A stretch of 62,365 nt of DNA, the filler included, from Hausera hauseri (Eukaryota): NCBI GenBank assembly GCA_046269625.1. It is 12 parts of 12 records of this genome, joined end to end, with 100 filler letters (N's around TTAATTAATTAA, not from the genome) between each part and the next. Parts side by side here need not be neighbours in the genome. Positions count along the whole stretch, not along the records: positions 9,018 to 14,106 come from JBJURY010339380.1; 11 more parts are not named here. One strand, given 5' to 3'. The translations under genes and the position numbers were made by a program. Below, in pieces: positions 1,814 through 55,352 of this stretch (position 1 is the first letter of the stretch; each line of letters starts with the position of its first letter). The notes beneath the pieces were generated by a model, which worked only from the letters and a program-made list of their open reading frames with translations, searched no databases and was not told where the DNA came from.

Positions 1814-2732
1814 TATCGTCATCTAATACTAACAAATAAATTACACATTTATACTCGTTAATTGGGTTCATGAAACAGAAACAGTAAAACAACGACATCA
1901 ATATTTATTGATAATTAAAATGTGTTTCAGCTATACGCCAAATCGGGCTTTTGACAGTCTTTTTCCTTTTATCCTTGCAATTCATTGTTCAATCGATACT
2001 TTAAACCATCATCATCGGGTACATTAGACATTTTGCGACCGATAAAATCAAACAATTTCGTTTTTGTTGCTGGTAAAACGACAGATTACTGTTGCGCGGT
2101 CGTTTCATTCGACTTTAAATCCACGTTTAATTGATGTAAAGCATCAGAAAGTTTATCCAAATTTTCACCCGAAAGCCATTTTACACGGTAGCTGTACTTG
2201 GGTGCACATAGAGACACGGGATCATTCAATGAAATCAGTACGGGCGTTTTCAGAAAATGCATTTCATACTTGCGAAAAATTCGTTTCGGTTAAAATGTCT
2301 GTGTTTGGTGCAGCTGTTTTGATTTTCGTTTAGGTATTCCAATAATTGCCATTTGCCTTTTTAATGCGGTTTTGCTGCTGATGATGCAGATGATTATTTC
2401 TGAGCAAGTCCCTTTTTCATTTCCAGACAATCGACATTATAATCGCCCTGCAGATAGTAGCCATTAGAATTATCACACGGTTTTTCCAATTGTTGGACAG
2501 GTTCTGTTTTCGTTGTCAGAAATTTGACATTAGAATTGTCCTTTTTGTAGTCAGACAACCACGACCAAACTGTACTTTCATCATTCTCACAACCACCACC
2601 ATAATAGTCACTGAGTAGAATCGTTTTATCGTCGTCTTCCATGGCAGTAATATTTGAATGATCATGGGAATTGTATTTATAGTTTGTTGTCGTTGTGCAG
2701 AGTACATTATTTTGATTCACTAAGACATTTGT

Positions 2733-3173
2733 GTGGTTTTTAATTTTATTAATAATCGGTTCATAGTCCGCTGTCCGAATACCAAATACAAAAATTTTTC
2801 CACTGCTAAAAACATTGACACAAAGTGGGCAAGGCAATGTCAGTCTCAGTGCAAGAAACAGTTCGGGTTCGTATGTACATTTAGTGGCCATTGCTAATTT
2901 GTACAGACTGACTGATGGACAGTCTAACTGAGTCGTTACCGTTATTGATTGGATTTAATCAGTGATAATTCCGAATGGCATTAGTTTATTGTTACTGTCA
3001 GTTGTAATTGGTTTGCGACAACCCATAATACGACACTTTCCCGATTGAAATACGATGCATGTAAAATCCGGTGGACACTTGAGGACATACTGCCTCGACT
3101 TCCATTGACTAAAATGTAGTGTGTTAACGTCACACTCGGTAACATGTCCGCGATAGTTGATATTAGCTAACAT
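2733..3173 (-). pseudogene. Divergent, intronless TATA-box-binding-protein-like gene (core domain only)
   Basis: ORFs 2955-3233 and 2394-2891 share one frame, separated by a single TAA. Two TBP repeats are visible: CIVFQSGKCRIMG, then IQSITVTTQL...YEPELFLAL...VNVFSSGKIFVFG (canonical: ALIFSSGKMVCTG, YEPELFPGL, LLIFVSGKVVLTG). Confidence 0.75.
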
Positions 3174-4315: not shown

Positions 4316-4374
4316 ATATTTCTATACAACATTTATTGAACAAAGAATAACAAAGAATAACAATATGTACATAG

Positions 4375-7300
4375 TTACAATAATGCCACATGTCCATGAG
4401 GTAGTATGTGGATTCCGTAATCAAAAATGTACCTCTTGTCACCCAACCAATCGAGACTTTTCTTTCGCAACGCAACTGTGGCAATCTGATGTTCGCGGGA
4501 CTGGATCCTTTTTATCTCGCTGACGATGTGACTTTGCTCCCGCAACACTCTCTTAAAATCTCCAAAGCCAATGTCTTTAGCTAATGTGGCCCTTTGAACT
4601 CCCTTGGCTTGCTTCTTTACCTGACCACTTACATCTATGGCGTACATTTTTGATCTCAACGTCACGAAACGGGTGATGATCTTTCCATTCACCTCGTCTT
4701 TAAACTTTCCGAGGACATTCTTGTGGGCAATTAAATAATTTGGATGATCCTTTGGATAGTCTGAGGTATCCATATACTGCGCCAATTTTGCATATTTTTC
4801 AAAGACATAATCTGTGCGGATCAGATATATGAAACTATCCGTGTCCATATACATTAGCTGGAGCTCCTGGAATGCGGGGACCATGATGTTGTAATGAAAG
4901 TCATACATCAATGTCTTGGATAGATCTAATATGGACATTCCCACATATATAGGCTTGTTGAACTCAAGTAATATCTTGAGCATATGGATGCTCACCAGAT
5001 TCTCCGTGTAGATTGTGCTGCTGTGGAATGTGGGCTTAGCGATGAGTTCTTTGCCTTCTTTCAGTCACATACCAGCTTAATGTTTATCCGTTTCCGGATG
5101 TTCTCCATAGTTTTGCCAAAGACCGAGTTCTTATACAACTTGTATTGGTCCTTTTCAAACTCGTTCTTGGCATTGGCCCTCAACTGAGTATTGAGGTCTA
5201 TGTATGGATTCAGCCATTTGGACTGGCTGAACTGCAGGGCCCGATGAATCCTGATGACTCGGAGTCCATTTTGGATGGACTGTTGGCGATTTATGTAGTG
5301 GGCTACATACCTCTCCCTGTTTTCGAGATCACAGATCAGCTTATTATGCTTATCATTTGGCGGCCTCTTGCTCTCCGGGAGAAAATGCAGCTGCTCATGC
5401 CTTGTATGGATGCTATGTGGGTATTCCATGTCCACCTCCAGTATGTAGCCCGTATCTCCATTGGTATTCATACCTTCAATATCCAGGACTTGCGTCTGCT
5501 CCACGCATTGAAAGTTATCATAGGGCAATGGGTTGCTCATTGCCCATCCATATAGATTGTTGGCATCCAGGTATAATATATATATGAGGATTACTTTGAT
5601 GGATCATAATCTGCCATGTATTTGTTGTTGGCCTCACTGTACCTGTGAACGGCCGAGCAGATTCCGCCTCTAATGCCTCTCTCGATCATAAGGATCATAT
5701 TATAATCCTTAATGATCTGCAGCCCAATACCAGTATATCTCAGCATAGCTGCCCAACTCATTCCGGGAGCTGTAAAGAAATGGGCTGGATCTAACTTGTG
5801 ACTCTTAAGGGTCACATTCCGGAAGCTTTCGAAGACATCAGTAAGCAATAGAACATCTGTGAGGAGATAGATATTACTGTATTCCATATTGCCCTGCACT
5901 AGAAGGTCTGTCATACTATTTGGGCGTGCTTATATTCAGCATCGCTAATATGACTGCATGACAACTGACTATAGAAGTTTTCCTTGGACGGTAATGCATC
6001 TTCATCCAGTGCTTTCCATGACGTTATATAGTCATAGGGGAACACTCCTTTCCGCTTCACAAGGTCAAATGTATCCGGGAAGAACCTCGTCGTCTCCTTG
6101 AGCTCATCAGCTGGAAGGTTCTGCACGGGACTCTCCAGTGACGAGCTCATGAAGTGGAAGCTATCAATGAAGCGAAGGCTGATGCGGCCCATATGTACGT
6201 AAAGGGGATGTACTTCTCCTCACTATTTGGAATCATATCAACGTTCCCCTCAATATTACCCAATTCTCGAACAATGAAGTGGGAATCGTATCCATTAAGA
6301 TTGTAGAATACCACGGGAACATATGTACATGTCTTGCAGCGTAAGTTGCAATTGTTGCACGCTGCGCCTCGGTATATGCCTGTAAAATGGCAGTGATCCC
6401 TGACTTTGTGATTGGCCCATGTAAATGGCTTTCTGCATAAGTAGCATTTTGATGCTTTGCGCCATTTACATTTTTCTTGCTGCGACATCACCATGTAGTC
6501 TTTATGTAGCTGCAAGATGTCTTCAATTTTGTGTGTATACTGTTTCAGACGCTGCATAAAATGTGTTGCTTCATTTACACCCCTGTATAGATAGGGTTTT
6601 TTGTCCAGACCTTTGGCATACATGCTGTATAATCATAACTCATGGTACTGGTATGCTGTAGTACTGCTTTGCTGTGGATTGGGGTTGCAGCTGTGAACTG
6701 GACTGAGGATGGCCTCAAAGTCACAATATATGACAATCGGCACCTTCTTCTCTCGAACTCCTTAAATTCCAGGTAATCCTTTTTGAGAAATTCTGGTCGG
6801 ATGCAATAGTTTGTATTGCAGTAGGTATTGTGCTCCACCAACTTTTCTGCGGCTGTCCCTACTAAAATGGGTAAAGCATCTTTTGCATATTTCCAGCCTT
6901 GATTTATGCTTGGATATTTGGAATTTTAGGAGGCGTTCAAAATTCTTGATCCAGATGAAATGCCTCGTTTCTCCATCATTTAGCAGAAGATCCCTATGAT
7001 CCTCCAATTCCTCCTTACACGTACGTAAGGGATAAAATTTGTTCTCCTCCAATCCAAAGATGTTGATGAAAATGTTGTTCACGCTTTCAAATTTCACGAC
7101 CTCATCTAGGCTCGGTGGGAATGAAATACAGCTGAGGTCACATTTGTGCTGCACTTTGTTATATATGCAAACTCTGGAAGCATTATGTTTATCCTGAACT
7201 AGTTTCAACAAAATAGAGTACATGAAGCACATGCTGTCCTCATTGTGGATATTGATGCATGCCTTTTTCTTAACTATCCACTCAAGAAGCGGTATGTAGG

Positions 7301-8107
7301 AGCTGCCTCTTATGGGAGAATACTTGTACACATGCACATGTAACTCCTTTATTGTTGCTAAAGTCCAACCGCTCTTCTTGTCCTGGCTTTTTTGGCTTCG
7401 CAGATGAGCCTTGCATAGTCCTCTGTAATGAAATTTTTAATGTTAAAGGATTTTAATAGTGGCTTTTTCTTTGACTTGAAGGCTCTATTAGACAGCTCTC
7501 CTTTGACATTGGTGAAGGTGACTTCCAATTTGTAGTTCACCTTAAGAGTCTTCGGCTCCAACAAGTTGTTCTGGAGAATTCCTGCTGCCTCCTCCCTTGA
7601 ATATTTCAGGAAATCATCAAGCGATGTCTGCCGCACTGCTGCTATGAAGTATCGTTGTACTTTGCTCTTCAGTGCAGTTGCATCAACTGGCAGCTGTCTT
7701 TGGCTTTTTGATGGAGCATCTGCTGCTACTTCTGATATGCGTTTTGGTCCTGCATCAGGCCTTGCTGTTAAAGCAGACCTTGCTGCTAAAGCAGGCTGTA
7801 CAACTGTCTGTGCTGCCGAAGCAGGCTGTGCTGCCAAAGCAGGCTCTTTCTCATTAAATATGACCTTCTTTGGCTTTAAATTGAAGTCTGTCAAATGGGC
7901 AATATGATCTTTGTAAAACTGCATGTATTCTCCATCACATACAGCCTCATATCCAGGGCAAATATAATAGAGGACTCTATTGAATTTGTATCCATAATAG
8001 CTCCTCATGGCATTGTGGCAATTCTGAGGGTTATGTATTGCACATATGCAATACACATATAAACTGAATCCTATATTTTCCTTTGGCACGAAAGTCGTTA
8101 TTGGCAT
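4375..8107 (-). pseudogene. Protein-primed DNA polymerase B (family A copy): putative terminal protein region, vOTU-like domain, EndoVII-like insert, exonuclease and polymerase
   Basis: GSSYIPL...NEDSMCFMYSIL and RHFIWIKNFERLL; CYLC...RDHCHFTGIYRGAACNNCNL; YNLNGYDSHF; RKGVFPYDY; RGIRGG; YKLYKNSVFGKT; YMDTDS; KGVQ. Many frameshifts. Confidence 0.93.
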
Positions 8108-9017
8108 ATTGGTACTGAATATTTGTTTTTTTCGACTTGGTGAAGAAAATCAAGTGCTGTTTATGGACATTTTAAAAGTCTTCATAATTGGTTTGGCACA
8201 CAACCTCACATGTAGGGCATATATAATACTATACACTCTGTTGTACATATGGCCAAAGTACTTCTTCATAACACTGGCAATTTTTCTGCTCGTGGATTTA
8301 AGCCAAACATTCGCTTTAAAGTTCTCACATCTAAAATCAACAAATTATTTGAGGAGCACAATTAAAAAAATTACCATTTGTTGAAGTGATTTTGGAAATA
8401 ATGAAAAATATAGTCATATCACCATGTACTGCCTCGCTTATTGATTGGTTTAATGTGCTTTTGTTTTAATGCATCAATTAAATTAAATAAAATGCGGCGC
8501 CAAATTTAAGGTTTTGGACACGGGGAATCGAATGACGTAATTAGATTCTTTGAATAATGCATGCTTGACCGATTATTCGAGTTCAATTAGCTAAGTATTC
8601 GACTTGTAAACTCGAATTCAAATATGTAACATCATATTCCGATTCGGCATACATGACTTCCTATCTAGTCCCGCTTAAGGATTTATTGATTTCTGCTTCA
8701 CTGGGCTTTAAATGCAGATTTTGATTAATTCGAAATATTGATTTTGTGTCTATATAGTACATTTTCATGGAATAATTTTTATGTTTAAGGGGATTTTCGA
8801 ATATGAGAAATCGATTTCCGCTATTGGATTTTCCGAATAGTTCGATATTCGGTATTCGATGCAAAAAATATTCGAATTTCGAATATCTGACTCAATATTC
8901 CAGATCGCCATAGTCGANNNNNNNNNNNNNNNNNNNNNNNNNNNNNNNNNNNNNNNNNNNNTTAATTAATTAANNNNNNNNNNNNNNNNNNNNNNNNNNN
9001 NNNNNNNNNNNNNNNNN

Positions 9018-10690
9018 GGCAACAGATGCAAGCGATTATGGAATAGGAGCAGTATTATTACAGAAGGGTGAAGATGGAAAAGAACACCCTGTGGCCTGTG
9101 CTTCAAGAAAACTTAATAAACATCAAAAGAAATACTCTGTAATAGAAAAAGAGTTATTAGCAGTGATATTTGCCTTAGAAGTATTTTCACCGTACATTAA
9201 TGAAAATAAACCACTTATGATTTATACAGACCATAGACCACTTTAATAGCTAAAACAGCATGAAAATCCAAATAGTAGACTCCTACGATGGGCTCTAAAG
9301 TTACAACCATATACATTGAATTTTCAGTATAAATCTGGCACGCGAAATGCTAATGCCGATTACCTATCGAGACTACCAGATAAAATAGAAACGAAAGCAG
9401 TAGTCGCAGGCACATAGAGTATAAACGGATCAACTGAGAAAATTAAGATGAATCAAGATGAAGATATGGAAATAAGAGCCATTAGGAAATATACAAAAGA
9501 TAAAACTATACCAGTTGACAGAGAATTAACCCGTCACCTGGCGCGATTCAGCGAAGTGTATGAAGGGAAGAAAGGATTTCTATATTTTATTAGTCAAAAC
9601 GGACCTGAATTAGTAATTCCTAAGAAAAATAGAGCAGTTTTATTAACCCAATAACACGATGGATTGCTTGGAGGACACCAATCAGCCAATAAGACATTAA
9701 GCAACTTAAAACGGAAATACTTCTGGCCAACGATAATGAAAGACGTACAAGAATGGTGTGAGAGCTGCAAGTTGTGTGCTACCCCAAAAAACACAGGATC
9801 AAAATTTAAAGCACCGTTAAAGGTATGGGATAACTCTCAAGCACCATTTGAGTTTACCGCGATTGATGTAACGGGACCATTACCGTTAACACGAAATGGA
9901 AACAAATTTATCTTAGTATTTATCGATTATTTCACCAGATGGGTGGTTGCTTTACCAATGCCCGATATGAAGGCAAATACAATTGCTGAAAGATTTGTGG
10001 AAAACAGTGTTTAACTATGGAGCTCCAAGAATTCTCCTGACTGATCAGGCATCAAATTTAACTGGATCAGTAATGCAGTCCATATATGATATCTTGAAAA
10101 TATTAAAGTTGCGATCAACGCCCGGACATCAGGAGAATAATGGAATGGTTGAAAGGTATATTGGAGATCTGAAAAAAAAGTTACAAACGGTAGTAAATAC
10201 TAGGCAAGATGATTGGGACGAATACATCAATGCATGTGTCTTCGTCAATCGCATATCAGTCCATGAGGCTACTAAAGAAACACCCTTCTATTTAATGTAT
10301 TTGCAGAATGCAAGATTACCAATCGACCTAGATTTTAATGTGAAACCCATTTCACATTTAATGGAAATAGAAGACTGTAAACAGTTAATGCAAGAACGAC
10401 TTCAGTTAGCCTGCAAAATGATTGGCGATAATCAAAAAGATTACAAATTAAAGTATAATAAGTACTATGACCAAAAGACTAAACAGCCTAAAATCAAGAT
10501 AGGCGACCAAGTAATGTTGTATTCTCCAGTAATTAAAAAGGGTAAAACGTCTAAGTTAGACAGACCATATAAAGGACCATATGAAGTAGAAAAAGTAAAT
10601 CTACCGAATATTTGTTTGAAGGAAAATAATACTTCCGTAAAAGTACACGTTAATAGATGTAAGCCCGCGGCCAAGGAGAGCGAATTAAGA
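9018..10690 (+). pseudogene. Ty3/Gypsy pol 3' part: RNase H and integrase
   Basis: TDASDYGIGAVL...EKELLAV...TDHRPL; HHCC finger (H..GGH...CESCKLC); DDE residues (AIDVTG, LTDQAS, NGMVER); GPY/F motif YKGPYEV. The RH-IN order is Gypsy-type. Confidence 0.95.
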
Positions 10691-10759
10691 AAGGGTGAAA
10701 AAGAGTTGGTATGTAGCATTTGTGAGAAGGTAATCGAAACGGACGCAACAAACAAACTA

Positions 10760-12725
10760 CGATTAAAAAGGGTATTGGTACTAATCATCATCTTATTATC
10801 TCCCTTAGTGATAGGATAGATGACGGACCAAGAAGTCGAAAAAGCAAAGCTACGACATGCCACGGCCATAAACGAGGATCTATGGTTGAAAAGCTTAAAG
10901 TATCATATAACGTACTCCACGAAAGGCCAGAAATGCATTACCTGGTATATTACAAGAAGAATGCCTGGCGAGTATATTATAGGGATACGAATAACCCCAG
11001 TCTACGGTTATAAAAGAAACTCTAATGAAGGACATAATGATTGTATTCTTCGTTCATCGATAAATGAAACGCAATGTCCAATAGATACTTCAGGGCCACA
11101 TGGAGTACACCTAACACTCATAAAGAAAAAAGAGGATTATTATTAGTTTATATACCAAATTTCACAGGTATATACGTGTTCCCCACAGACATGAAATGAA
11201 CGAAACACTACTCGATGAAATAATACTCGCACAGCTAAGGATAAGATCAATGGGATTTAAAAGTGGACGAAGCTGTCTCGAAGTAAGGAGTATGATAGAG
11301 TTAGAATATATCCGATGGATAACGATATCCATAAAAGAAATAGGAGGTGAACAAAGATTATTGAAATGCGAATTAACAGATGAACAACAACAAGTTTGCT
11401 GTAACGTAACAAGAGGCAGGATATATGAGGTAAAATACACTCTGTCACGGAAGGAACACGGAAAGCTTAAAAATAAAAGGCATAGAACAGGACCGACAAT
11501 GTTTATACGATATAAGAATCAAAAAGAGTATGATGATATACGAGAAGGGATCACGGCAACACCTGTGCAACTCTCAGCTAGTAATAAAGAGATGACTGTC
11601 CTAATTAAGCCTTACGCTTCTTATTACCGCCAAAAACGTTCCATCTGGAATAACGTAACCATCATAGCAGCTCCCACGGCACTAATCATCTCAGTTAAAC
11701 CAGATCTTGACTTCGTAAAAATTAAATTCACTTGTAAAAAACAAGATACTATAATAGCAAAAGGAATCATAACTCCGGATGATCTGATAGTGCCGTGTGC
11801 AGCTCTAGAATCCGATACGAAATATACGATTATGCTACAGTTATTAGATGCTAACGATAAAATAACCTCTACCAAAGTAATGTCCGCAATCACCAAAGGC
11901 AGCAAAGTGGAATCACAATACAGATTAAAGACAATTAAAAATAAGACAACTAAAAAGCCACAACGAGCAGGATATAAACATTCTCGTTTAGAAATAATTA
12001 TAATAAGTTCAATAACCCCTATAGTAATACTAATAGTAGCAGTAATATTAGTTAAGCTGATACAACGACAACGACACAAGAAAAGACAGAGCTGGGTACG
12101 AATCAACTTACGTGAGCTAACGAATTCGTTAGCCACCACTAGTCCCAGCTGACGGTGGAGTTTAGGGATTGCTATTAATGCAACCCTTTTAACGAAGATA
12201 ACCACAGGTCAACAGGTTACCTATAGAGATAAATCAAGTTATAAAACTACAACGATTACCATGGCATGTCTGATAACCGTTGTGTTGCGTGTAGATATTC
12301 ATATTAGCTCGCAATTGACATTTCTATTTACAGTGTCGTCCTCAACCTTTCATCAAGTCCAATCAATTACCAGGTCTAAACACTGGTATAGTAATGCAAA
12401 AAACCTCATAATCAACACCAATCCAGCTAATCAATATTATACGATACAAAACGATCATACAACCAGTTTGAATTACCCACTGACACAAATCCCAAACAGT
12501 CTAAAAGGATATAGTATGGCTGACAGGTCTCTAGCTCTAATGCAGATAACAAAAGCCACATCACTATATCTAATAGACATAATGATTCTTCACGATCGAT
12601 ATCACTCTATAAACATTTATTGTATAGTCGGTCAATTCCATATCAAAACAACAGCTAGAAAAACATCGATAAAAGGTGATCTTATTAATATGAACACTAT
12701 TCTTTTATCCAACAAAATCTATTAA
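10760..12725 (+). pseudogene. Retroelement-borne type I membrane protein (signal peptide, FN3-like ectodomain, TM, cytoplasmic extension) in frame with integrase
   Basis: Hydrophobic VLVLIIILLSPLVIG ends the integrase ORF; TAG at 10817-10819 is followed by an in-frame continuation. Several NxT sequons, an RQKR site and an FN3-like LESDTKYTIML motif. TM LEIIIISSITPIVILIVAVILVKLI is followed by a basic stretch. ORF 12261-12725 is in frame after one TGA. Confidence 0.6.
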
Positions 12726-12814
12726 AAATACGATCCCTTACCAATCGTCTTATATTAGCAATCGAAGTGATAAAGAAAGAAAAATTTTAGCCAAGTGTAC
12801 CTAACGGAAAATGT

Positions 12815-13555
12815 TTGGATCTCCCAGAGCCTGATTACGTAAAATATAGAACAATTCCTTATAGACGTATTCAGAATGTCACAGATAACGATCTGGTCAT
12901 AGCTGCCGTTAATTTGGCCTATGACCAGTGGAATCAACTGCAGCCTATCGAAATATCGATTATAGACTTATATGGAAATACATTATTCTACAGCATCGTA
13001 TCTCCTCGCCAACGTATAAATAACTTCGACAGTCACATAACCGGTTTGGTCGAAACAAATATTGTCAATCAAATGGATCCCCCGGACGTCTACCGCAAAG
13101 TGACAGAAATATTAACCGATAAGATTGTTATCGGGGCCGATGTGGTCGAGATGATCGTGAATTATTTCAAGTGTCCCATACGCCGAATAGCCGGAGTTCG
13201 TGATGTCTTACATCACGAAGAGGTTATTCGGAAATAATAATTGTCAAATAACACTTTCAAAGAATTAGCCCGCAAATTTTATGATTGAAAGGGCTTTCCA
13301 TTACATAGCACCGCTCTGGTGCAATGTTACAAAACAATTTATCGCCAACTTAAATGGAACGACGAACTAATCTTAACTAACACGGCCTCCGATAAGGTGC
13401 GAACAGCACCCATAACATCCACATGTGGCAGAAACAGAAAGGTACAGGTCGATGTAACCGTGGTCATCGACGAAGTATATGAACCGGAATCTATTCGATA
13501 CAAATCTCGATCAACCGGTAAATTCGTCCACGTCCCATTGAGTTTAGATCAGTAA
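12815..13555 (+). pseudogene. REX4/ISG20-like DEDDh exonuclease fold, catalytic residues apparently substituted
   Basis: EISIIDLYGNTLFYSIVSP...NFDSHITGL...KIVIG...FKELARKF...HS follow the REX4/ISG20 pattern, but the ExoI DxE position reads NLA. ORFs 12815-13237 and 13319-13555 share one frame. Confidence 0.6.
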
Positions 13556-13588
13556 ATTCGGGGCAATTTCTTCAGTCCCCCATGAAGC

Positions 13589-14106
13589 TGTTTGACTGAC
13601 AGCTGTGACTCCAATTGAAAAAAATTAATAATCTCCTTAACAATCCAACAGATATTTATCGACTCATAAAACAACCCAACGAACATTTATCGATTATAAA
13701 ACAGCTGATAACCGACAGTATTAATTAGCAGAAGTGTGATTAAAATATGGTGTATATTAATTTTTATTACGATAACAGTTGTTTCATGTGTAATTATTGG
13801 TGATCAGAAAAACTATATATAGATTGATGATTAGAGAAATTTTTGTGAATTTTTGAATTTTTGAATTCATTTTATGATTTTCGACGTTTGAATGACATCA
13901 CGTAAGCCTATGTTATATTTCTTTGTTGTGTGTGATAAATATTTCAATATATAATTATTTTGTTTAGATTATTGTATACTTGTCAATAAATAAGTAAATC
14001 TAAGTAATTGGTCTTTTCTTCCCGTCCAGGTTAACCCTACCTGACGGGAGCCTGTCTAATAAATAGGATAATAAACAATAGTAATTAATTGCTAAGTAAA
14101 AGACTT
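13589..14106 (+). repeat. Putative 3' LTR of the Gypsy element, truncated by the contig end
   Basis: Non-coding AT-rich tract starting TGT shortly after the last ORF, with AATAAA and a hairpin. No canonical PPT and no partner LTR in the window. Confidence 0.3.
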
Positions 14107-17110: not shown

Positions 17111-17302
17111 TCAATCAGGAAAATAAAAATGCCTATCATGGAGGCTTTACATTGATTTTGAGCAAATCATAAAAAGTAAAATATCAAAAGTAGATTATCT
17201 CAATCAAAGTTGTTCACAATCAAAGTTTGTTGCTAATCAAAAGTTGTCAAAGTTAAGTTATCGAGTCAAGTTATCGACAAGTCTTTATTGATAAGTCTCA
17301 AC

Positions 17303-19514
17303 ATTTACCTGACTGGACGTTCTTTCATACCGACATCTGCATCCTTGAAGCAGTCTCTGGCGACTGTGAATGTACAAAATACTAATGACGAATACTGCTT
17401 CAGTTACAGCATTCTGGCTATATTGAAATATGATCAAGTGTCCAAACATCCTGCAAATTGTCCAAAGCAGTACAATAAGTATTTCTCAGAATTGCACTAC
17501 TACGAATGATGGATGCCGATGAAACTCAAAACCATTCCGGCTTTTGAACAGCGTAATCCGACAATAGCAATCAACGTGTTCCAATACAACACAATCGTAA
17601 AAATACCAGTAAACGAAGAGATATACAAAACCCACACGTAGATATAATTTAGCGCAGTCGGAACCCGAATGGACGCTCGGTAAAGTTGTTGCTGTTGGAC
17701 TAAGCAGATAAATTTCACTACGTGGCAGCAACCAATTTGGACAGACTGCTGAACATGGATCACCAACAATTCATCAAAAAGCGTATAAATTGTAAATGGT
17801 GCTTTACATGTCTGCATGGTTTCAGGTCAAAACGACATGGGAAAAACATGTGACACTGTGCAGACAAAATTCATCAGGGAAAACAATGTACGTCATGCCA
17901 GACAAAAAGGAACTGAGATTCATTGACTGGTCGCAAACAGACAGTCCGGCATATGTGGTATATGCCGATATCGAGGCACGCTTACCGCGGCACAACGTAT
18001 GCGACCAAAAGCACATTCCAATCATCGTCGGTATATTGGTTGTTTTAATAAAAGCCGCCGGACAACTGTAATATTACGTTTTTCATGGCTGGAACTGTAT
18101 ACACGATTTCGTGCAACAGTTGGAAACGATAGTGGAAACGGAAATCACACTGTGGTACAGTAACAATAACACTAAGCCCTTGATATGGACAGACAAATAT
18201 GAATCGCTGCTTTTCGCTGCCACCGATGAATATTACCTCTGCCAAAAAATATTGGCTTTTGATACACAGGAACGGCTCGTACCGGACCATGATAATTTCA
18301 CCGGTCGATATCTGGGAGCCGCATGCAACGCATGCGATTTAACAAGGCGATCTTGGTATGCGTGGCGGCATGACATTTGTCAACAAGCATCACGTAACCA
18401 GTGATGATACCACATCACTGTTGTATATTAACATTAATAACCTTTACGGCTGGGCGCTTTCACAACCCTCGCCGTACGGTTCATTCGAATGTATAGTCGA
18501 TAAAGAGGACCTGGACACAATACTGGAAAATCTGTTGAGAGCAGATACGACAACAGCAGAAAACAGCTCAATGGGATACCTGATGGAGGTCGATCTCGTG
18601 GCACCCGATGAGCTGCATGAAGTTTTAGACGATTTACAGGTCGCACCATTTAACTAATGTCTGCCGGGCTCAAAGGTAAAGAAGTTGCTTATGACGCATG
18701 AACTCAAGCAAAATTACATAGTTTATTAGCGTCTGTTGCAATTTTATATTCAGTTGGGTGTATGCGTCACACGAATACATCGCGCAATCCGATTTGCTCA
18801 GGTTCCCATATGCAAGGCGTACATATATGGAAATTTGGAAAACCAGCCGCAGCTTGTAGAAAGTTCGAAAAGGACTATTACAAGCTGAAAAACAATTCTC
18901 TCTATGAAAAGCAATGGAGAATCTGAAAAAGCGGCTCAATGTATGCCTACGCAACAGCGAAAAGCGGCTGGTTACGTATATTAGCAAGGCACAGTTTCGG
19001 CGGTCAATGCACATTGCCGATGGATTGGTTGCGTTGCTGTTAAACAGAGAAGAAGTCGTTCTGGAGCGATTAAGTTACTTCGGACAAGTGGTATTGGACC
19101 TAAGCAAGTTGCGGATGTATGAGCTACGGTATCATGACTTGGTACGTTACCGGCAAATGTTTGACGACAATGACATTTGTATATTTGCCGGTGACATAGA
19201 CAGTTTTTTCCTGCGGCTGAAAAAAGTCAATCGCGAACAGCTACTTCAGCAAATGTAGTCAAATAGATTACTGGACACGTCCAACTACCCACCGGATCGT
19301 CTATTGTACAGTAGCACAATCACCAATAAAATCTTCTGCTTAAAGGTGAAAGTGAATGCAGGGTTCAGTATTGGGAATGGATATTATTACGCCCAAAGTG
19401 CTACAGTCTTCGGACGGACAGTGGACCGAAAATTCTGGCAAAAGGAGTCCAGCTGAGACAGACGGAAATCGGCCACGGTAATTATCGCCGTATATATGAA
19501 GCAGCAGCAGAAGG
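17303..19514 (+). pseudogene. Protein-primed DNA polymerase B (family B copy), 5'-truncated with an internal deletion
   Basis: GRSFIP, DEYCFSYSIL, HYVAATNLDRLL, VYADIE, PDHDNFTGRYLGAACNAC, then directly MRGG, YININNLYG, GDIDS. Confidence 0.92.
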
Positions 19515-25379: not shown

Positions 25380-27133
25380 ACACCAATACCCATACGCTTA
25401 TCATCTTTCGCTTATCATCAGTACATGACAAAGCGATTTTTGTGTTTGTTATAGTATACAGCTGGTGCTCCATCAATCGCATGGTCGTTTGACACACAGC
25501 CATTGATTGTCCTCTTCCTTCTCCTTGTCGTCCACCGTCTTTTTCTTTTTCTTTTTCTGCTGCTGCTTCATAGATACTGCGATAATCATCGTGGCTTATT
25601 TCCGTCTGGCACAGCTGAACGCCTTTTGCGCGCATTTTCGCACCACAGTCCGTCAGGAGACTGTAGCACTTTGGGCCCAGGCATATCTATTCTCGGTACT
25701 GAACACGGCCTTCGCTTTCATCCTTGAAGCAGCCGAATTTGTTCGTGATGGTGTTGTTATACAGCGGATGATTCTGCAGGTAATTGGACGTGTTCAGTTG
25801 TTTACCTGCTATCATTTGCTGGAGCAGTTGGTCGCGATTGACGTATTTCAGCTCAAGAAAAATGTTGTTTGCGTCACCGAAAACGATACTGATATCACAG
25901 CCGTCAAACATTTACCGGTAACGTGCCAAGTCGCGATACTGGAGCTCGTACATTCGCAACTTGCTCAAGTCAAATACCACTTGTCCGATATAGCTTGGTC
26001 GGTCCAGTACGATTTATTCCCTGTTTAACAGCACGGCGATCAATCCATCGGCAATGTGCATTGAACGCCTGAACTGAGCCTTGCTGCTATACGTCACTAG
26101 CCGCTTTTTGTTGTTACATAGGCGCATATTGAGTCGCTTTTTGAGGTTCTCTACTGTTTTGACGTAGAGAGAATTTTTTTTCAACTTGTAGTAGTCCTTT
26201 TCGAACTTTGTACAAGCCGTGGCTGGTTTTTCTGATTTTCCGTCAATGCATGCATTGAATATCGGCGCCATATTGAATTTGATTGCCCAATGTAGCTGTG
26301 TGACGCATACACCGAGCTGCATGTAGAACTGTAGCATACGCCAGTGCATCACGTAATTTAGCTTCGGTTCATACGTCATGAGGAGTTTCTTCACCTTTGA
26401 GCCGCCGAGCGGACATTGGCTGATTGGTGCGGCAGGTAATTGGTCCAAAGCGTCATGCAACTCATCCGGTACCACGAGATCAACTTCCATCAGGTAACCG
26501 AATGAGCTGTTTTCTTCCGTGTCTACTCTAGGTAAATTTTCGAATATTGCCTTCAGGTCTTGCTTGTACGTTAACCATTCAAATGAACCATAGGTCAAGG
26601 GTTGTGAAAGCGTCCAGCCATACAGGATATTAATGTCAATGCACAGTAGTGATGTTGTGTTATCATCACTGGCAGCATCAGTAGCACTAACGTGGTGCTT
26701 GTTGAGAAATGTCATGCCGCCACGAATACCAACATCAAACAGTCTGTACATTTCTGGGTCTTAAAACAACTCAATGTCCCAGTCCAATGATATCAGAGTC
26801 AACGCCAAACCCATTCACGGTATGGAGTAAAAGTTGAGCGGCTCCAGACTATCTTCCGCCAACGCTTTAGTCCGAAATGTCTGAAACACGTCGGCCAGCA
26901 AGTACACGTCCAGTTTCAGATTCTGGAGCATGTAATTTAATAGGCTTCTGCAGCCGAGCTCTGACCAAGATTCCTGTGCTCTGCGATATTCATATTCTGT
27001 TATACTGGGCCACTGCGGCGGCAATTCCTCTGTTGTCTGAAGCCGCTCGTACGATATAGCAATGTCATACGGGAATATGCCGTTGCTACGTTCAATATGC
27101 ATCGGAAACTGAGTTGGTGTTAACGGTACATCC
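25380..27133 (-). pseudogene. Protein-primed DNA polymerase B (family B copy), 3' half
   Basis: GIFPYD, LKLDVYLLADVF, GIRGG, IDINILYG, YYKLKKNSLYVKT, GCFKDE, RAKGV, KIALSCTDDKR. Confidence 0.93.
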
Positions 27134-28562: not shown

Positions 28563-29270
28563 TTAATTTCCTCGACCCCATCTTTTCGATTTATCTACAT
28601 CTGAGATAATCGACTTAGTCTCCTCCTTGGGTATTTCTTCAATTGCCATTATCGATCCGAGTCTGCTATTCCGTTTTAGTTGTTTTTCCTTTGTTCCAGT
28701 GTTACAGATTCTCAAATGGATTTTTTCATCTCTTATTTTATTCGCATGTGGTGTTACTAAAATGTCATATTTATCCATTACGTATGGAGATAGCTCAAAA
28801 TATTCTGACCTTATTGGTAGATTCCTTTCTATTCTACCGTGCACTACCATTTCTGAACGCGGTGGAATAGTAATATCTTCTATCAATGAAACGGCTTCCT
28901 CGTATCGCTTCTCGTTAAAACTTCTAAGTTGGCCCGTCTTAATATCAATATATACGTTATCTAATTGGTGTAATACGTCACATCCCAGTAGTATTTCGTT
29001 CGTTAGATTCTCAGCTACTCTTATAGTGTGGTTTATAATTTGGCCACAAATTTTAATCTTCGCGTCTAGAACCATTTTTATCTCCTCCTCTATTCCAAAT
29101 GCTCCTACATTAATCAGGGTTTCTTCAAGCTTTCGTAATTTACTTTTCAATTTCTTGGGTAACTGACTCCTTCACATTATTGTGGTTATGGATCCGGTGT
29201 CTATTAAGTCAAATAGTGGATACCCATTTACTTCTATTTCTATTTCTGGTCTCGTATACGATCGGGCTTC
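28563..29270 (-). pseudogene. Retropepsin (aspartic protease) followed by a dUTPase-like spacer domain
   Basis: LIDTGS catalytic motif and ILLGCD, then ITIPPRSEMVV...LRICN...RLG. One in-frame TGA at 29172-29174. Confidence 0.88.
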
Positions 29271-29654
29271 GTTCTTAGAACTTACCTTACATGTCGCTTC
29301 GCGATTATATGGTATAGGATTTTCGTTGTAATCCTGTTTTATTCTTAAAATTTGGTACGTGGGGTACATTCCCCCATGTCTTACGTACTGGGGGGCTGAT
29401 GGGTTCATCGACAATTGGTCACTGTAAACTTGTCCATAGTACTCTTCCGCAGGATTTAGTTGTGGTAAATCGGTAACTAATTTCCTTTGATATTTTTGCT
29501 TGTGGGGTTTCAACGGCAATCTTTTAAGTCCATCAATATACCTATTGCCTTTAAATCTAGTGTCTAAGTTGTCCTCACAACTTCTTCCATTCAGGGTGCT
29601 GTAAGGTGAATTATTGTCAGCCTCGTGGTTTCTTTCTTTTGATATTTTCCTTTT

Positions 29655-33099: not shown

Positions 33100-36000
33100 G
33101 CCTTGATGAATACATGCAAAGCAGAAATACAGAGCATCAGCAGCAGAAGCAGCAGCAGCAGCAAGAACCGCCCATTACTGTCAAGTACGATCTAAACAAA
33201 TATAAGTATAAAAGTAAACATGTCGGTGAAATCAGCAACTGAACTGAGGCACATACCCGCTCATGTGCGCAACCGCTTAGAAACCGAAGTAAAGAAATTC
33301 AAACACCACAACTGCAAAGCGCAATATTATGTACTTGCAGAATTTGAGAATCTGCAAGCTGACAGGAAACAGTGGTACCTGTCACATCGAGCAGTTCCAT
33401 ATTCCAAAGATTTCATTGCCGACTTAGGCGAAAAGCTGGACGAAAAAATCGCCAACTACACCGAAAAGGACAGTGGTTGGCGAATAATAAAAATTGTCAC
33501 TCTCGGTTTTATTATAACAAAGTCGAGTGACATAATTTACCTGTCCGGACGTTCATTCATACCGACACCTGAAGATCTAAAGCACTCTTATGCTGTAGTG
33601 AATGTAAAAAATACGGACGGTGATTACTGTTTTATTTACAGTATTCTGGCGGTATTAAAATATGACGAAGTGGGCAGACATAGTGAATATCGTCCGAGTC
33701 AGTATCGGCAGTATTTTTCTGAATTGCAATTCAACGAAAACTGGATGCCGATAAAACTAAAAACCAATCCGACACTGTCAGTCAACGTGTTACGGTAAAT
33801 TACAATAGTTGAAATACCGACAGACGAAGGAATTTACAAGAATCCACATGTGGATATAATCTATCGAAGACGGAACCAGAATGAACGCACAGTAAATTTG
33901 TTAATGTTAAACCAGGCAGATACATTTCATTACGTGGCCGTAACAAATTTGGACCGACTGCTGAACATGGATCACCATCAGTTTGACCAAAAACAAATAC
34001 GTTGTAAATAGTGTCCTGCATGTCTGCATGGCTTCAGATCAGAAACCACGTGGGAAAAACATGTGACGCTGTGCAGACAGAATGCATCAGGAACAACAAT
34101 GTACGTCATGCCAGTCAAACAAAAGTTGAGATTTAGTGACTGGTCTAAAACGGACAGTCCAGAATATGTGATATGTGCTGATATTGAAGCAATCCTACTA
34201 CAGCACGACGTATACGATCAAAAACATGTTCCATTTGCCATCGGAATGTTGGTTGTCCCAAAAAATCTGCAGGTCAACCGCAGTATTACATGTTTCACGG
34301 CTGGAACTTAGTGCATGATTTCCTGCATCATTTGGAAACAATAGTTGAATCGGAAATCTCACCGTGTTATCGCAATAACAGAACAAAACCCCTGATTTGG
34401 ACAGATGAAGGTGAAAGTTTGACGTTTGCAGGCACTGAGGAATGTTATCTGTGCCATAAAATATTACCGTTTGACGCACAGGAACGACTCGTACCGGATC
34501 ACGACCATTTTACCGGTAGATACTTGGGAGCAGCACGTAAATCATGCAATTTACCGAGGCTAGTGCGGCCAATCCTACCAATGATCTTTCATAATTTCCG
34601 AGGTTATGATTGTCACCATATACTGAAATGGGCCATCAACGGATTTCCGTACTGGGAACTGTCCATAATCTCAACAATGGATAAGTACCTGTCCTTGTCA
34701 GCACGCATAAACCGGTTCCAGATACACTTCCTTGATTTATTGCAATTTCTCAATGAATCACCGGCGAAGCTGGTAAATGTCTTGTCGGATGAGCCGATAA
34801 CCTCAACGCAGTTCTCTACACATATTGAACGCAGCAAAGGTACATTTCCATATAACTTTGCAATATCATATGAGCGACTCCGGACAGCAGAGGAATTACC
34901 GCCGCAATGGACAGGCATCACAGAACTTAAATATCAGAGAGCACAAGAATCTTGGACAGATCTCGGCTTTAAAAACATGTTGGATTACATGCTATGCATC
35001 TTAAACTGGACGTATACTTATTAGCCGATGTGTTCCAGGCGTTTTGAGCGAAAGCGTTGGCTGAAGATAGGCTGGAGCCACTCAACTTATATTCCATACC
35101 AGGAATGAGTTGAGCGTCAGCTCTAATGTCACTGGATCGAGATATTGTGCTGCTACAAGACCCGCAAATGTACCGGCTGTTCAATGTTAGTATTGGCGGC
35201 GGCATGACATTTGTCTACAAGCACCAGGTCAGTGCTACCGATACCACATCACTGCCATATATTGACATTAATAACCTGTATGGCTGCGCACTTTCGCAAC
35301 ACTTGCCGTACGGTTCATTCGAATGGGTTGTCGACAGACAAGATGTGGACTACATAATAGTCAAACTACCACGAGCAGACATGGCAGGCTCAGTCGGATA
35401 CCTGATGAAGGTCGATTTCGAGATACCAGACAAGCTGCATGACGTTTTGGACGATTTGCCGTTCTTACCATTTAACCAATGTCCATAATGCTCAAAAGTG
35501 ACGAAACTGCTCATGACGTATGAACCGAAACTGAATTACGTGGTCCATTGGCGTCTGCTACACTTCCACATGCAGCTCGGTGTACGCGTCACACAGCTGC
35601 ATCGTGCAATCGATTTGCTCAGGCTCCCATATTCAAGGCGTACATAGATGAAAATTCGGAGAAACAAGCCGCAACTTGTACAAAGTTGGAAAAGGACTAC
35701 TACAAGCTGAAAAACAATTCTCTGTGCGGAAAAACAGTGGAGAATCTGAAAAAGCGGCTCAGTGTACGCCTATGCAATAGCGAAAAACGGTTGGTCACCT
35801 ATACAAGTAAGGCGCAGTTTCGGCGGTCAATGCACATTGCCAATGGATTTGTTGCGGTGCTGTTAAACAGAGAAGACGTCGTTCTGGATCGGCCAAGTTA
35901 CATAGGACAAGTGATATTGGACCTGAGTAAGTTGCGGATGTATGAGCTACAGTATCGCGATTTGGCACGTTACCGGCAAATGTTTAATGGCTGCAATATT

Positions 36001-36332
36001 GACATAATTGCCGGTGACAGACAGTTTCTACCTGCGGCTGAAAAACATCAATCGCGAACAGCTACTGCAGCAAATGCAGTCAGGTGGATTACTGGACACG
36101 TCCAACCACCCACCGGATCATCCGTTGTACAGCAGCGCGATCACCAATAAAATCGTTTGCTTCAAGGATGAAAATAAAGGTCTTGTCCGATATCGGTAAT
36201 GGATATTTCTACGACCAAAATGTCATAGCCCTTTAACCGACTGTGGACCGAAAACGCGCGCCAAAAGAGTCAAGTTGAGACAAACGCAAATCGATCACGG
36301 TGATTATCGCCGTATGTATGAAGCAGCAGCAG
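33100..36332 (+). pseudogene. Protein-primed DNA polymerase B (family B), near full length, C-terminus missing
   Basis: DSGWRI, GRSFIPTP, DYCFIYSIL, HYVAVTNLDRLL, CADIE, CYLC..DHDHFTGRYLGAA, FHNFRGYD, KGTFPY, YIDINNLYG, YYKLKNNSLCGKT, FKDE. Confidence 0.93.
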
Positions 36333-36804
36333 ATGAAGCTGCAGAACAGTTCAGCTTATCTTGCAGAGATCCAATAAGTTTGCATGTTCCACCTCTCCCT
36401 TTCTTCTCCCCGCTACATATGCTCAGTGATAAGGTCCCATCTGGTGTGACTGGTAGGGACAGAGGAAGCTTACTTGGTGGGAACTCGGGGAGGTCTAGAA
36501 CTGATGGAGTTATAGAAGAATAAATTGGGATGACATATGAAAATATAAGACCGGAAATAGTAGCCCAAAACAGATTAAACTGCTTTTACCCGTCCCCACG
36601 GAAGAAAACGTGTTTGAAACAATAATTTACTAATATTTTTAAAATATTATCAACTCGAACTGATAGAGAAATGGATAATAAGACGAATCCTCAATTTAAA
36701 CACCACCCGCTACGCAACCCATGTCTTGGAAACAATTTAATCCGTATTTCAGATGTAGATTTTTCGGACTGGTGATACTCAACCCGCATAAAAAAATAAC
36801 TAAC

Positions 36805-42531: not shown

Positions 42532-45356
42532 TCACTGCAGAATATCCGTGTATGTCTTCTCTAACCACGGGTACACGTCGACCACTCTAGACTTCAACGA
42601 CAATGTGTATTCGTTGCTCTCTGGATTGATCTTCAGCTCGGCGAGCACCCAAATATTGTTGGTAAGTTTTAGAGACTGATATAACATGTCTTGTCCATCA
42701 ACGTTGCGCTTCGCAATCGTGAATATGTTGCTCTTTCTCAATCGGTCACTGCACTGTTCAGCAGACAGATGAATACCATGCAGTTTCGATTGCTTCTCGT
42801 TGGCACTGGGTATGTCCTTCCATGTGGCTAGAAATACGCGTTTCTCCATTTCCCCATCGTCAACCATCAATAAGTAAAGAGGCGCCAAACATTGGAAGTA
42901 AAGTACATCAATGTTGGTCTTCATGGCCACCTGTAGGTTCATCAATTGTTCCATTTTCATGACAGGTCCGTTGGTGTTTAACGGCAAACTATAGTTAATC
43001 GATTGATTCGTCATCAATGGCGCAGTAATCGACAGCGGCTGTGACGGTGCGATACCGAAACTATTCTTGTTGAACTGAATAGCGAAGTCAGAAAGTGGCT
43101 GAAGTGCTCGATTGGTCAGCGTCAGATCCATAAACATCTGGTTGCCGGGCTTCCTTGAAAATGTGCCGGAAATCTCCAGACCTTTGCCCTTTTGTGAATT
43201 TAGCCACATTTCCTTCGGCTGTATGTAACCATGACTGCTGGCCAACGACAATCCGCCAGTCGACATTCCCAGACCACCAAATATGTCCACCAAAGCATCT
43301 GCCGAGCTACCGCCAGTGTTGGATGCCGCTGTCGAGCTGGTTGCTCCATGGCTGGGAGGATTAATATTCAAAAGACTATCCAAACCGTCACCGAGCAGAT
43401 CGAATGAGCCGGACATAGGCTGAGCAGCAGGAGCGTACCCAGAATATGCCTGCACATTCGGCATTGTATTGATGTCCATGTCCATCAGCAAGTCGCCAAC
43501 GATGGCTTCTTGTGAAGGAATGACGGTCTGTGTTGGCATCGTGTCGTTGGTGGTCTCGACACCCCCATCAACTCCCTCTGACCGCGACTGTGTCTGTCGA
43601 CGAACGAAATGTTTGCCATCAAAAAAGGAATTCGGTGGCCGATGATAAACACTCGCAAGAGTGGCAAGATGGCAAATCAATTCATCCAGCAAACTGGGTT
43701 CAAGCAAATCTGTTTCTTCACTAATCAGTGGTTTCTCAGCAAGCACGACGTCCTTCGCTGCAGCAGGATCCGTTGACAGCAGTCGCCAATATATGTAACC
43801 ACGGTCCCGCAAATCTGGATTATCCGATTCCTGTGTAGCGAGACTCAGCACTGTCTGCACAAGCTCCTGTGTGTGGGCCGGTCGTTTTAGGAACAATTTG
43901 ACGATGGCCGTCAGCAGCTGCAACTGGACTTGGGTATTCTCGTCTTGAAATCCCTCAAGGAACGATTCCAGCAATTCGTCAGCATTGTCAATCCGTTCAG
44001 CATATTCGCCAATAATCCAGATCATAGATGCACGAGCTTCCGGCTCGTCTAAAGTATCCAGATTTTCGCATAAAGTTGCGATTATGCTTTCGTATTTATT
44101 GGGATATTTTCGGAAAATGTCCTACAATAATAACGTCCGTAAAATTATCACTTAACACATACCTTGATGACAACGACGGCTTCCTGCACAACATAATTGA
44201 CTTTGGTCTGTATCAGATCAATCAGCGTCGTAACACATCGTTCAGCAGCCGTCTCAACTTTGATGGCACAACGACCGATCGCTCTTACCGACTTACGAAC
44301 AAAATCAACATCAACCTCCTTCGCGTACTCTTTCAGTTCAGCTAACACCTGCGCGATGTTATTTGAATTCGTCAGACGAATCATTATATCGAGTTTTTCC
44401 AATTTCACGTATATCGGATCGTTGTACTTCACAAAGAATACTTTCACTTCATTTTTCAGAATATCTGGTCGCCGTTGGACAACCAGATTAATGTTACGCA
44501 AGGCAACATACTGGATTTCCGGTTCAGCTGACAGCTGAGTAACAAGAGGTGGTGCCAGTTTCCTGATCATGGACTGGACAAAATCGTCACTAGGATTGAG
44601 GATCTCAATGAGTCTCATGACGACCTTCACCGCTGACAGTACAACAGCAGCATTAGCATGAGATAATCGCGGAATGACGCGTTCACAAATAGCCTGTGCT
44701 TCGGCCTCATCCCTTGGCTGATAGTTTGACACCGCATCAAGAATAAACACCTGGCCCCATCTGGATAACATGTGATTGATATACAATCGTTACTATCATT
44801 ACTCTGTGCACTCGTTCAGTGCAGTTAACAATTTGTTGACAACACCTTGGTTAAATGCCAATAACTGATGTACAGTTTCTGATTGAGTAGAATCTAGAAT
44901 TTCAGAAATTGCGGCAACAGCATTAGCCACCACCATTGGATTGCTGTCACTTAGTAAATCTTTCAGCAGCTCCAAGAATCCATTGTCCTCGACAATTGTC
45001 GCATCAATATCATAAAGCTTAGCGACACAAACAGCAGCAGTTTTTCGAACGTATGGATCTTCATCTTTCAGACATTTACGTAACGGGTCACAGAGATAAG
45101 CAGTTATTTTATCTACTCTTATGCAACCCATAGTTCGAACGGCCAATGCACGAATCAGTGGATTTGAATCGTCACAGTCCTGAAATTTAATAAAAGCTTT
45201 CTACTGATTAAATGGCCAACCCTGACAAATGTATTCACAGCCAAAATTGCCGTGTCCGGTTGAGTTTTAGCGTAATTCATGAGATAAAGATAAACTAATT
45301 TCTTTAATTCCAGATTATCAGTTTGCATGCAGTTTACAACGTCGGGAAACAGTGCA
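42532..45356 (-). CDS. AP1B1: AP-1/AP-2 adaptor complex beta subunit (beta-adaptin), 5'-incomplete. Exons 45356-45221, 45179-44803, 44760-44163, 44121-42532
   Basis: [84 protein letters not shown], plus the ear domain. Three GT-AG introns of 41, 42 and 41 bp restore the frame. Invertebrates typically have a single AP1B1/AP2B1 ortholog. Confidence 0.95.
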
Positions 45357-55124: not shown

Positions 55125-55352
55125 TCTCATTATAATGAGAAAACAATCTTATAAAAATGAGAAAATATGTCATTATAATGACAAAAATATCTTGTTAAAA
55201 TGAGAAAACTATCTTGTTAAAATGAGAAAAACATCTTGTTAAAATGAGAAAAGTATCTTGTTAAAATGAGAAAAGTATCTTGTTAAAATGAGAAAACTAT
55301 CTTGTTAAAATGAGAAAAACATCTTGTTAAAATGAGAAAAGTATCTTGTTAA
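55125..55352 (+). repeat. 22-bp tandem repeat (ATCTTGTTAAAATGAGAAAA + 2 nt)
   Basis: About 7.5 near-perfect units from 55189 to the contig end, preceded by about 3 degenerate units. Confidence 0.95.

Follow-up and report, generated by a model that had tools for sequence, protein, structure and literature searches.

A Ty3/gypsy integrase reading frame that continues into a predicted FN3-type membrane protein in Hausera hauseri

The retroelement fragment described here raises the question of whether the integrase of a Ty3/gypsy element can run, in one reading frame, into a second surface protein, and what such a protein would do for the element. The fragment is found in a stretch of 62,365 nt of DNA from the Hausera hauseri assembly GCA_046269625.1 (the window), in which 12 short contigs are joined by N-spacers; it occupies contig 3 (JBJURY010339380.1, window positions 9018–14106), and all coordinates count along the whole window. 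In our view the order of integrase, signal peptide, ectodomain of the fibronectin type III (FN3) kind, transmembrane (TM) helix and tail in a single frame is very probably a true feature of this element. The evidence for it comes from the contig itself, from other copies of the same family and from intact relatives.

All features of contig 3 lie on the plus strand. The contig opens inside RNase H (9022–9312, Pfam RT_RNaseH E 1e-34 with the stops of this copy read as X) and continues with an integrase (9616–10663) comprising a zinc-binding domain, a core that is frameshifted near 10010, and a GPY/F module with GPY at 10574 (Pfam Integrase_H2C2 E 4e-18, rve E 5e-4). This order is that of Ty3/gypsy pol, and the clade relatives described below carry protease (PR), reverse transcriptase (RT), RNase H (RH) and integrase (IN) as PR-RT-RH-IN. 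Only the 3′ half of the element is present, and since the contig starts inside RNase H, the element's own gag and env are not visible; a check for a polypurine tract found no purine run of at least 10 within 13501–14106. After the GPY/F module, the frame passes through a linker (10664–10759, with CSIC at 10712) that is not conserved in the relatives and is perhaps cut by the element's protease, and enters a predicted internal signal peptide (10760–10816) with a basic n-region, a hydrophobic h-region (19-residue hydropathy 2.21) and small residues at positions −3 and −1. A TAG (10817–10819) precedes the first part of the ectodomain (domain 1, 10820–11143), an open frame of 108 residues with three Cys and one sequon, which is followed by a frameshift (11124–11146) and by a probable FN3-like β-sandwich (domain 2, 11199–11530). 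An RQKR furin-type site (11628–11639) stands directly before the membrane-proximal FN3 domain with its Cys pair (domain 3, 11640–11897). A basic, Thr-containing stalk (11898–11993), a transmembrane helix (11994–12059, hydropathy 3.08, with helix values of 83–92 for the predicted local distance difference test, pLDDT) and a basic stop-transfer segment (RQRHKKR at 12066) with a cytoplasmic tail of 30 residues (12060–12149) complete the protein. Five NxT sequons are located at 11063, 11199, 11403, 11652 and 11940. A TGA (12150–12152) ends the tail, and 190 further in-frame codons extend to 12725. Given the base composition, the probability that frames of 108, 342 and 190 codons stay open by chance is 4e-4, 8e-12 and 2e-6, respectively. 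The motifs that a sequence-only reading of this DNA had named (GPY, CSIC, the basic-plus-hydrophobic segment, the TAG, the sequons, RQKR, the transmembrane helix and the stop-transfer) are all found where it placed them; the frameshift that it put near 11130–11190 is real and narrower than proposed, the two frames overlapping at 11124–11146 only.

The contig-3 element belongs to a Ty3/gypsy family of high copy number and is itself a decayed copy. The family was examined at 80% likeness in two public runs (X1 and X2) of two studies, one of which may be the source sample, and is represented by 11,140 contig pieces in X1 and 1,613 in X2, with 30 of 30 bins covered and wide divergence among the pieces; such cover identifies a large repeat family and not a single-copy host flank. 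At position 10817, where the same reading had suggested comparing other copies, a sense codon is present in 33 contigs of X1 (depth 2790.7 of 2850.8, 98%) and in 10 contigs of X2 (61.1 of 61.1, 100%), and indels at 11143–11144 set the family contigs apart from the contig-3 copy. The TAG and the frameshift are lesions of this copy alone, and the membrane protein is in frame with the integrase both in the family contigs and in intact relatives.

These relatives are P0001, the best by integrase of seven long proteins, and L004–L007, the four best of 80 metagenomic loci, with integrases 40% (40–46% by tblastn) and 37–46% identical, respectively, to that of contig 3. Past GPY/F, P0001 has a signal peptide, a furin site, one FN3-like repeat, a stalk, a transmembrane helix and a tail, whereas L004–L007 have, in intact frames, a signal peptide, two repeats, a stalk, a transmembrane helix and a tail. 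A hydrophobic segment occupies the place of the signal peptide in all five, and RTRR in P0001 takes the place of RQKR, while the ectodomains of L004–L007 have no furin site. All five end with a T-x-V/L C terminus, compared with none of 30 other integrase open reading frames (ORFs), and we take this end to be a class I PDZ ligand; the tail in the window ends with S-P-S and has no C-terminal S/T-x-V/I/L. In an integrase tree of 36 rows, built from 28 of 81 loci, the seven proteins and the window, without published elements (L009, L027, L029, L030, L035, L036 and L038–L084 were left out), the window, P0001 and L004–L007 form one clade with a support of 100/99. Tails were inspected by eye in 27 of the 80 loci, and none of the 23 others continues the integrase into an FN3-like layout. 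The repeat and exonuclease profiles have no match at E 0.5 in the other loci of the 81 (3277 pieces), in which the DNA past the integrase is often short (282–6000 nt in 23 listed loci). Among viral contigs, one search returned no locus and another a single distant one.

Comparison of L004 with its near-twin L006 reveals that the FN3 protein of the relatives is under purifying selection in this pair. The ratio of nonsynonymous to synonymous rates (dN/dS) is 0 in the integrase, 0.08 in the linker plus signal, 0.30 in the repeats (p 2.7e-4), 0.46 in the stalk (p 0.095) and 0.13 in the transmembrane helix plus tail. Neither of the outcomes that would have spoken against the proposal of a surface protein, a single-copy host flank or the lack of both an FN3/Ig fold and purifying selection, was found. 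In the same pair, the integrase proteins are identical and the synonymous rate dS is about 0.2 up to the FN3 stop and 1.8 or saturated in the accessory ORFs, which places a recombination boundary just past the FN3 gene. Outside the FN3 clade, a signal peptide and an env-like protein likewise follow the integrase in frame in the gypsy sequences P0007 and L013/L014 (PF12259 in P0007).

The fold of the ectodomain was modelled with AlphaFold (AF2) from 11124–12149 alone as a single sequence. The model contains a confident seven-strand domain at residues 173–258, right after RQKR (block pLDDT 62–89), with its strands spanning 178–258. This domain matches the FN3 domains of the IL-20 receptor, fibronectin, CD45 and DCC with Z values of 8.5–9.8 and root mean square deviations (rmsd) of 2.7–3.0 over 82–87 residues; the values are VIA Z 9.8, rmsd 2.7 and 84 aligned residues for 4doh_B, and Z 9.2, rmsd 2.8 and 87 aligned residues for fibronectin (3t1w_A). 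Foldseek agrees with these FN3-type matches. Domain 2 is found in the model as a low-confidence β structure (pLDDT 31–48 by blocks). With a profile built solely from the repeats of the relatives, the window ORF comes first among 692 pieces (E 5.5e-4, the next being 1.4), and when each of the 11 repeats is left out in turn, nine pass at 0 of 500 shuffles. When the same kind of profile is scored against shuffled domain sequences, domain 3 is strongly supported, being equalled by one of 2000 shuffles. The ten best named Atlas matches all fall in a single family or clan, with FN3 membrane proteins first, at values of at most 0.85, and serve as a lead only. No PF24664 or other fusogen profile or fold is matched by this ORF, whereas the env of contig 6 and of the L007 element do match, in agreement with the earlier statement that the protein does not resemble the fusogen. 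We conclude that the membrane-proximal domain is predicted to adopt an FN3 fold, and the FN3 or Ig-like fold that had been expected of this ORF is thus predicted in at least one domain. The further proposal that the protein was captured from a host found no donor by sequence among 1938 candidates or among 1.84 billion representatives at E 0.001, the host genome lying outside this search; judged by the fold, capture of a host cell-surface gene is conceivable and would predate the clade.

The sequence-only reading had placed the FN3 protein at the usual env position, which understates the arrangement in this clade. L007 is a single ORF of at least 2662 residues that comprises a signal, a class III fusogen (PF24664 E 1e-83) upstream of pol, a transmembrane helix, two protease domains, RT, RNase H, integrase, a second signal, the repeats, a transmembrane helix and the tail. 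In the window, PR-RT-RNase H of a sister element on contig 6 (29631–31437, minus strand) is preceded by a class III fusogen in decayed form (PF24664 E 1.5e-30; tblastn to the env of L007 E 4e-90), and 222 nt of its RNase H are 79% identical in nucleotide sequence to contig 3. Since the fusogen lies upstream of pol in both L007 and contig 6, the FN3 protein is an additional protein and not a stand-in for env, and the contig-3 element presumably also has an upstream fusogen. A second decayed fusogen-bearing fragment is located on contig 8 (38667–39399, minus strand). Two tandem aspartic-protease domains precede RT in P0001 (residues 157–250 and 336–431) and in L007 (about 920–1190, both by Pfam), and 28566–29273 (minus strand) of the window matches this tandem-protease region.

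Several observations weigh against the assignment of an FN3-type second glycoprotein to the contig-3 family. The mean pLDDT of the AF2 model is 50.6, a low confidence overall; Z values below 10 would indicate a common fold, pointing to neither a function nor a donor, and other Ig-like folds, including bacterial Ig-like domains, come within 1–2 Z of the best FN3 matches. Of the three FN3-like strands read from the sequence, that of domain 3 stands by fold and profile, that of domain 2 is weak (35 of 2000 shuffles) and that of domain 1, a part of the ectodomain for which Pfam gives no match, finds no support (708 of 2000). Repeat 1 of L005 fails when left out (72 of 500 shuffles) and domain 2 of the window is again weak (7 of 500). 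Pfam fn3 is matched, at E up to 1 or 10, neither by the window nor by the tails of L004, L005 and L007, a profile search of the PDB returns a single fibronectin match at E 1, and neither the pairwise comparison of the window with the P0001 ectodomain (z 1.2–1.6) nor any search for internal repeats by pairwise alignment gives a significant result. The selection figures come from the relatives, not from the ectodomain of the contig-3 family, for which 40 of 1,346 differences were available, and a fusogen and an FN3 protein are found together in one element in L007 only. Finally, with a furin site in two of the six members and no PDZ-type end in the contig-3 family, the task of the protein may differ among members of the clade.

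What follows the TGA is of a different nature. The 190 in-frame residues that had been counted with the membrane protein do exist, although they represent the front of an exonuclease-like gene, and the TGA is no lesion. The N-terminal domain of this gene (12153–12725) is matched by the profile of the corresponding domain in the relatives with E 0.0055, first of 692 pieces and above all 2000 shuffles, and contains an in-frame ATG in strong context at 12261. An alternative interpretation of the 190 codons, in which they start with a second signal peptide, was dropped on this match. The frame is lost in the contig-3 copy near 12690–12725, and a domain with a DEDDh (ISG20/REX-like) exonuclease fold, carrying stops in this copy, extends over 12791–13555 (profile of the relatives E 4e-16, match 12791–13234). 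The motifs shared with the relatives are 455 nt apart in the window and 143–159 codons apart in the relatives, a spacing consistent with a single gene that a frameshift has interrupted in the contig-3 copy. Each of L004–L007 has a downstream ORF with the same N-terminal domain and DEDDh fold. In sequence, the catalytic residues are intact in L007 and altered in L004–L006, and in alignments the acidic residues of ExoI are absent in the window (A-V-N as opposed to D-A-E in L007). Weak matches of the exonuclease-like part are exonucleases in three of three PDB and six of six phage cases; L007 and L005 match Pfam RNase_T with E 0.001–0.003, below the cut-off, sequence searches with the exonuclease-like part returned no relatives, and the predicted fold of the 190-residue piece has a pLDDT of 31.9. 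The strongest local RNA fold among 60 scanned windows (13150–13300, z −4.5) is located inside this gene. L004 (2684–4138) and L006 (2055–3392) carry a RING-finger ORF (Pfam E 5e-7) after the FN3 protein and before the exonuclease-like gene, and L007 has a helical ORF of 222 residues in its place.

The exonuclease-like gene could be reached in two ways, either by readthrough of the TGA or from a spliced RNA, and we consider both about equally plausible, each slightly short of an even chance; they can also coexist. The candidate readthrough site is the family-invariant UGA-CGG (12150–12155); neither run shows a variant reaching 10% within the 18 bases of 12144–12161. An 8-bp RNA hairpin is predicted 11 nt past the stop (12164–12187, z −2.72 for 31 nt); none of 16 positions of its stem varies, compared with 31 of 121 overall (P 0.006), and its loop variants are synonymous. 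At third positions only, the stem has none of seven against 12 of 34 (p 0.07), with no covariation or compensatory changes. A further hairpin is predicted 5′ of the stop (12116–12133), with the listed variants in its loop and its 5′ arm near the edge of the compared stretch, where it is less well tested. In a scan of 60 windows, 12100–12199 is second (z −3.5) to 13150–13249 (z −4.5), part of its fold depending on a letter private to the contig-3 copy, and a long-range stem past the stop is without support (z 0.0 over 231 nt). The stretches used for conservation around the TGA and hairpin were picked after the data had been seen. UGA-CGG or UGA-CUA with a 3′ stem is a type II readthrough signal (Firth et al., PMC3159437). 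In the parts of that account considered here, the motif and a stem after a short spacer are alike, whereas the spacer is 7–9 nt there and 11 nt here, and the stems are typically of at least 12 bp over 100–200 nt, compared with a local hairpin of 8 bp without compensatory changes in the window.

Under splicing, the TGA would be a plain stop, the conserved bases would be splice signals and the gene would begin from an acceptor at 12161–12165 or 12224–12226, or at ATG 12261. In L004–L007 the accessory ORFs are separate, the five inspected starts have a TTTAG- or YAG-type acceptor before ATG, and the FN3 stops are TAA or TAG with 0–14 in-frame codons past them. From ATG 12261 there are 76 residues to the shared motif, compared with 34–70 in the relatives, and nine of 28 variants over 12153–12275 are synonymous, the chance expectation. 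The AG of a possible TTTAG acceptor lies within the 5′ arm of the hairpin past the stop, and CTGAC over the stop resembles the branch-point consensus. On the other hand, the same frame is kept with 36 stop-free codons before the ATG, the pyrimidine tract before TTTAG is weak, and the variants listed over 12085–12275 include no indel or stop gain. The exact UGA-CGG motif, its 18 invariant bases and the hairpin at 11 nt also speak against splicing, as do the first 13 codons, in which seven of eight variants are synonymous (p 0.0014, in a stretch likewise chosen after inspection of the data).

With respect to the role of the FN3 protein, the reading that we favour is that of an attachment or cell-contact factor acting beside the upstream fusogen, to which we give an even chance. 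In such a scheme, the pol frame past the integrase would yield a second surface glycoprotein that helps the element to spread between cells. Signal peptidase would free the glycoprotein from Pol, the protease of the element would free the integrase, and furin would clip the outer domains in the contig-3 family and P0001. The PDZ-type tail end of the relatives might target cell junctions or polar membrane, and ribosomes that now and then read through the stop would make a catalytically dead, RNA-binding nuclease tethered to the membrane, the gene being otherwise expressed from spliced RNA. We can speculate further, and with distinctly low confidence, that Pol is placed between a class III fusogen and a PDZ-docking FN3 adhesion protein that builds the contacts through which the element passes into germ or stem cells, and that the contig-3 family has swapped the PDZ end for UGA readthrough, which hangs a dead RNA-binding nuclease on the cytosolic side.

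Among the other roles that may be considered, an assembly anchor is the first, although it is unlikely. Here Pol would be tethered between two membrane spans and budding placed at PDZ scaffolds, the ectodomain being a spacer. All six members of the clade keep the fusion to the integrase, while other accessory genes stand as ORFs of their own with an acceptor-like AG before ATG, and the linker plus signal and the transmembrane helix plus tail are more constrained than the repeats. A mere spacer is, however, at odds with repeats that are still under purifying selection and with a Cys pair and an L-x-x-x-T-x-Y-like strand that are kept across 37–46% integrase identity. A shed decoy or modulator of host signalling, of which the furin-released outer domains would bind a host ligand in the manner of the cytokine-receptor mimics of poxviruses, is improbable to much the same degree. 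The furin site directly before the anchored domain in the window and P0001, the cytokine receptors among the top fold matches and the faster evolution of the repeats than of pol would fit a decoy; however, L004–L007 have no such site, fibronectin, NCAM, CD45 and bacterial Ig-like domains come level with the cytokine receptors, within 1–2 Z, and the PDZ-type ends suggest an anchored role. Superinfection exclusion, in which the protein would occupy or down-regulate the receptor of related elements, appears more doubtful still: a type I surface protein that has a trafficking-type tail and is encoded together with a fusogen would be suited to it, but retroviral interference is normally exerted by Env itself. 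A chance fusion or host flank, suggested by the several breaks in the contig-3 copy and by an ectodomain without sequence relatives in large libraries, is hardly tenable and is ruled out by the multi-copy cover, the intact relatives, the clade, the profile and the selection.

If the protein acts in attachment, its presence is of wider relevance. It is assumed that an envelope-bearing retrotransposon needs one envelope protein, and a second, adhesion-type glycoprotein across a clade of such integrase divergence suggests that attachment and fusion are shared out between two proteins. It would also offer a single-protein handle on the route of such elements into the germ or stem cells of animals other than flies, and pol ORFs annotated as ending at the integrase may hide a surface protein. 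Readthrough, if true, would amount to an added recoding signal at the junction of two accessory genes.

The remainder of the window also contains polB-type and long terminal repeat elements, named from reading their translations. Together with a beta-adaptin-like gene, they point to an animal host, probably an invertebrate one. Decayed polB-type fragments, Polinton-like by the same reading, are found at 4316–8917, 17294–19514, 25551–27133 and 33196–36333, with 74–79% identity among three contigs. A beta-adaptin-like host gene with two long exons and one very short intron is located at 42535–44789 (minus strand), an ORF that by eye resembles a TATA-binding-protein repeat at 2397–2954 (minus strand), and a 22-nt tandem repeat at a contig end at 55118–55352.

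No description of a second glycoprotein, of the FN3 type and fused to integrase, was found in the searchable literature, Repbase entries and subscription journals being outside its scope. Nematode elements with flipped env and pol, reportedly the subject of Sacco et al. 2022, may bear on novelty. The available parts of PMC12471100 and PMC13238120 hold nothing relevant. The GAG-ENV-POL errantiviruses with an HSV/gB-type ENV from Nematoda, Bryozoa and Platyhelminthes (Chary and Hayashi, PMC13524379) resemble L007 and contig 6 in combining a Ty3/gypsy pol with an upstream class III fusogen. The main text of that paper has no mention of fibronectin, exonuclease or readthrough, its supplements have none of fibronectin, FN3, exonuclease, RNase_T or PDZ, and the only post-integrase domain described in the portions consulted is a chromodomain.

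Burro/GYPSM1 of planarians (Arkhipova and Yushenova, PMC6431247) is alike in layout, in that one giant polyprotein has a mononegavirus-like env inserted in frame after gag and before pol, in its dUTPase-like region between PR and RT, and in accessory domains that may be fused or form separate ORFs. Compared by description and not by sequence, it differs in that the sections of that account at hand describe no membrane or FN3 protein past the integrase. Atlas virus and other nematode belpaoviruses, as far as the relevant part of PMC9094657 describes them, similarly carry a glycoprotein at the C terminus of one Gag-Pol-Env polyprotein, although it is a class II fusogen of BEL/Pao, whereas here a non-fusogenic FN3 protein of Ty3/gypsy is accompanied by a fusogen upstream. 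The ORF3s of bdelloid Juno and Vesta (Rodriguez et al., PMC5408684) include a DEDD exonuclease and small transmembrane ORFs with RXXR sites past pol. In the passages of that paper used here they are separate ORF3s of the DEDDy type with intact catalytic residues and no FN3, whereas the gene described above is DEDDh-like, dead in the contig-3 family and intact in L007. A glycoprotein past pol in one polyprotein, an env between gag and pol, and exonuclease ORFs are thus each known singly; to these, the present analysis adds a clade of six members, the selection on its FN3 protein, the furin-site variant and a candidate readthrough site.

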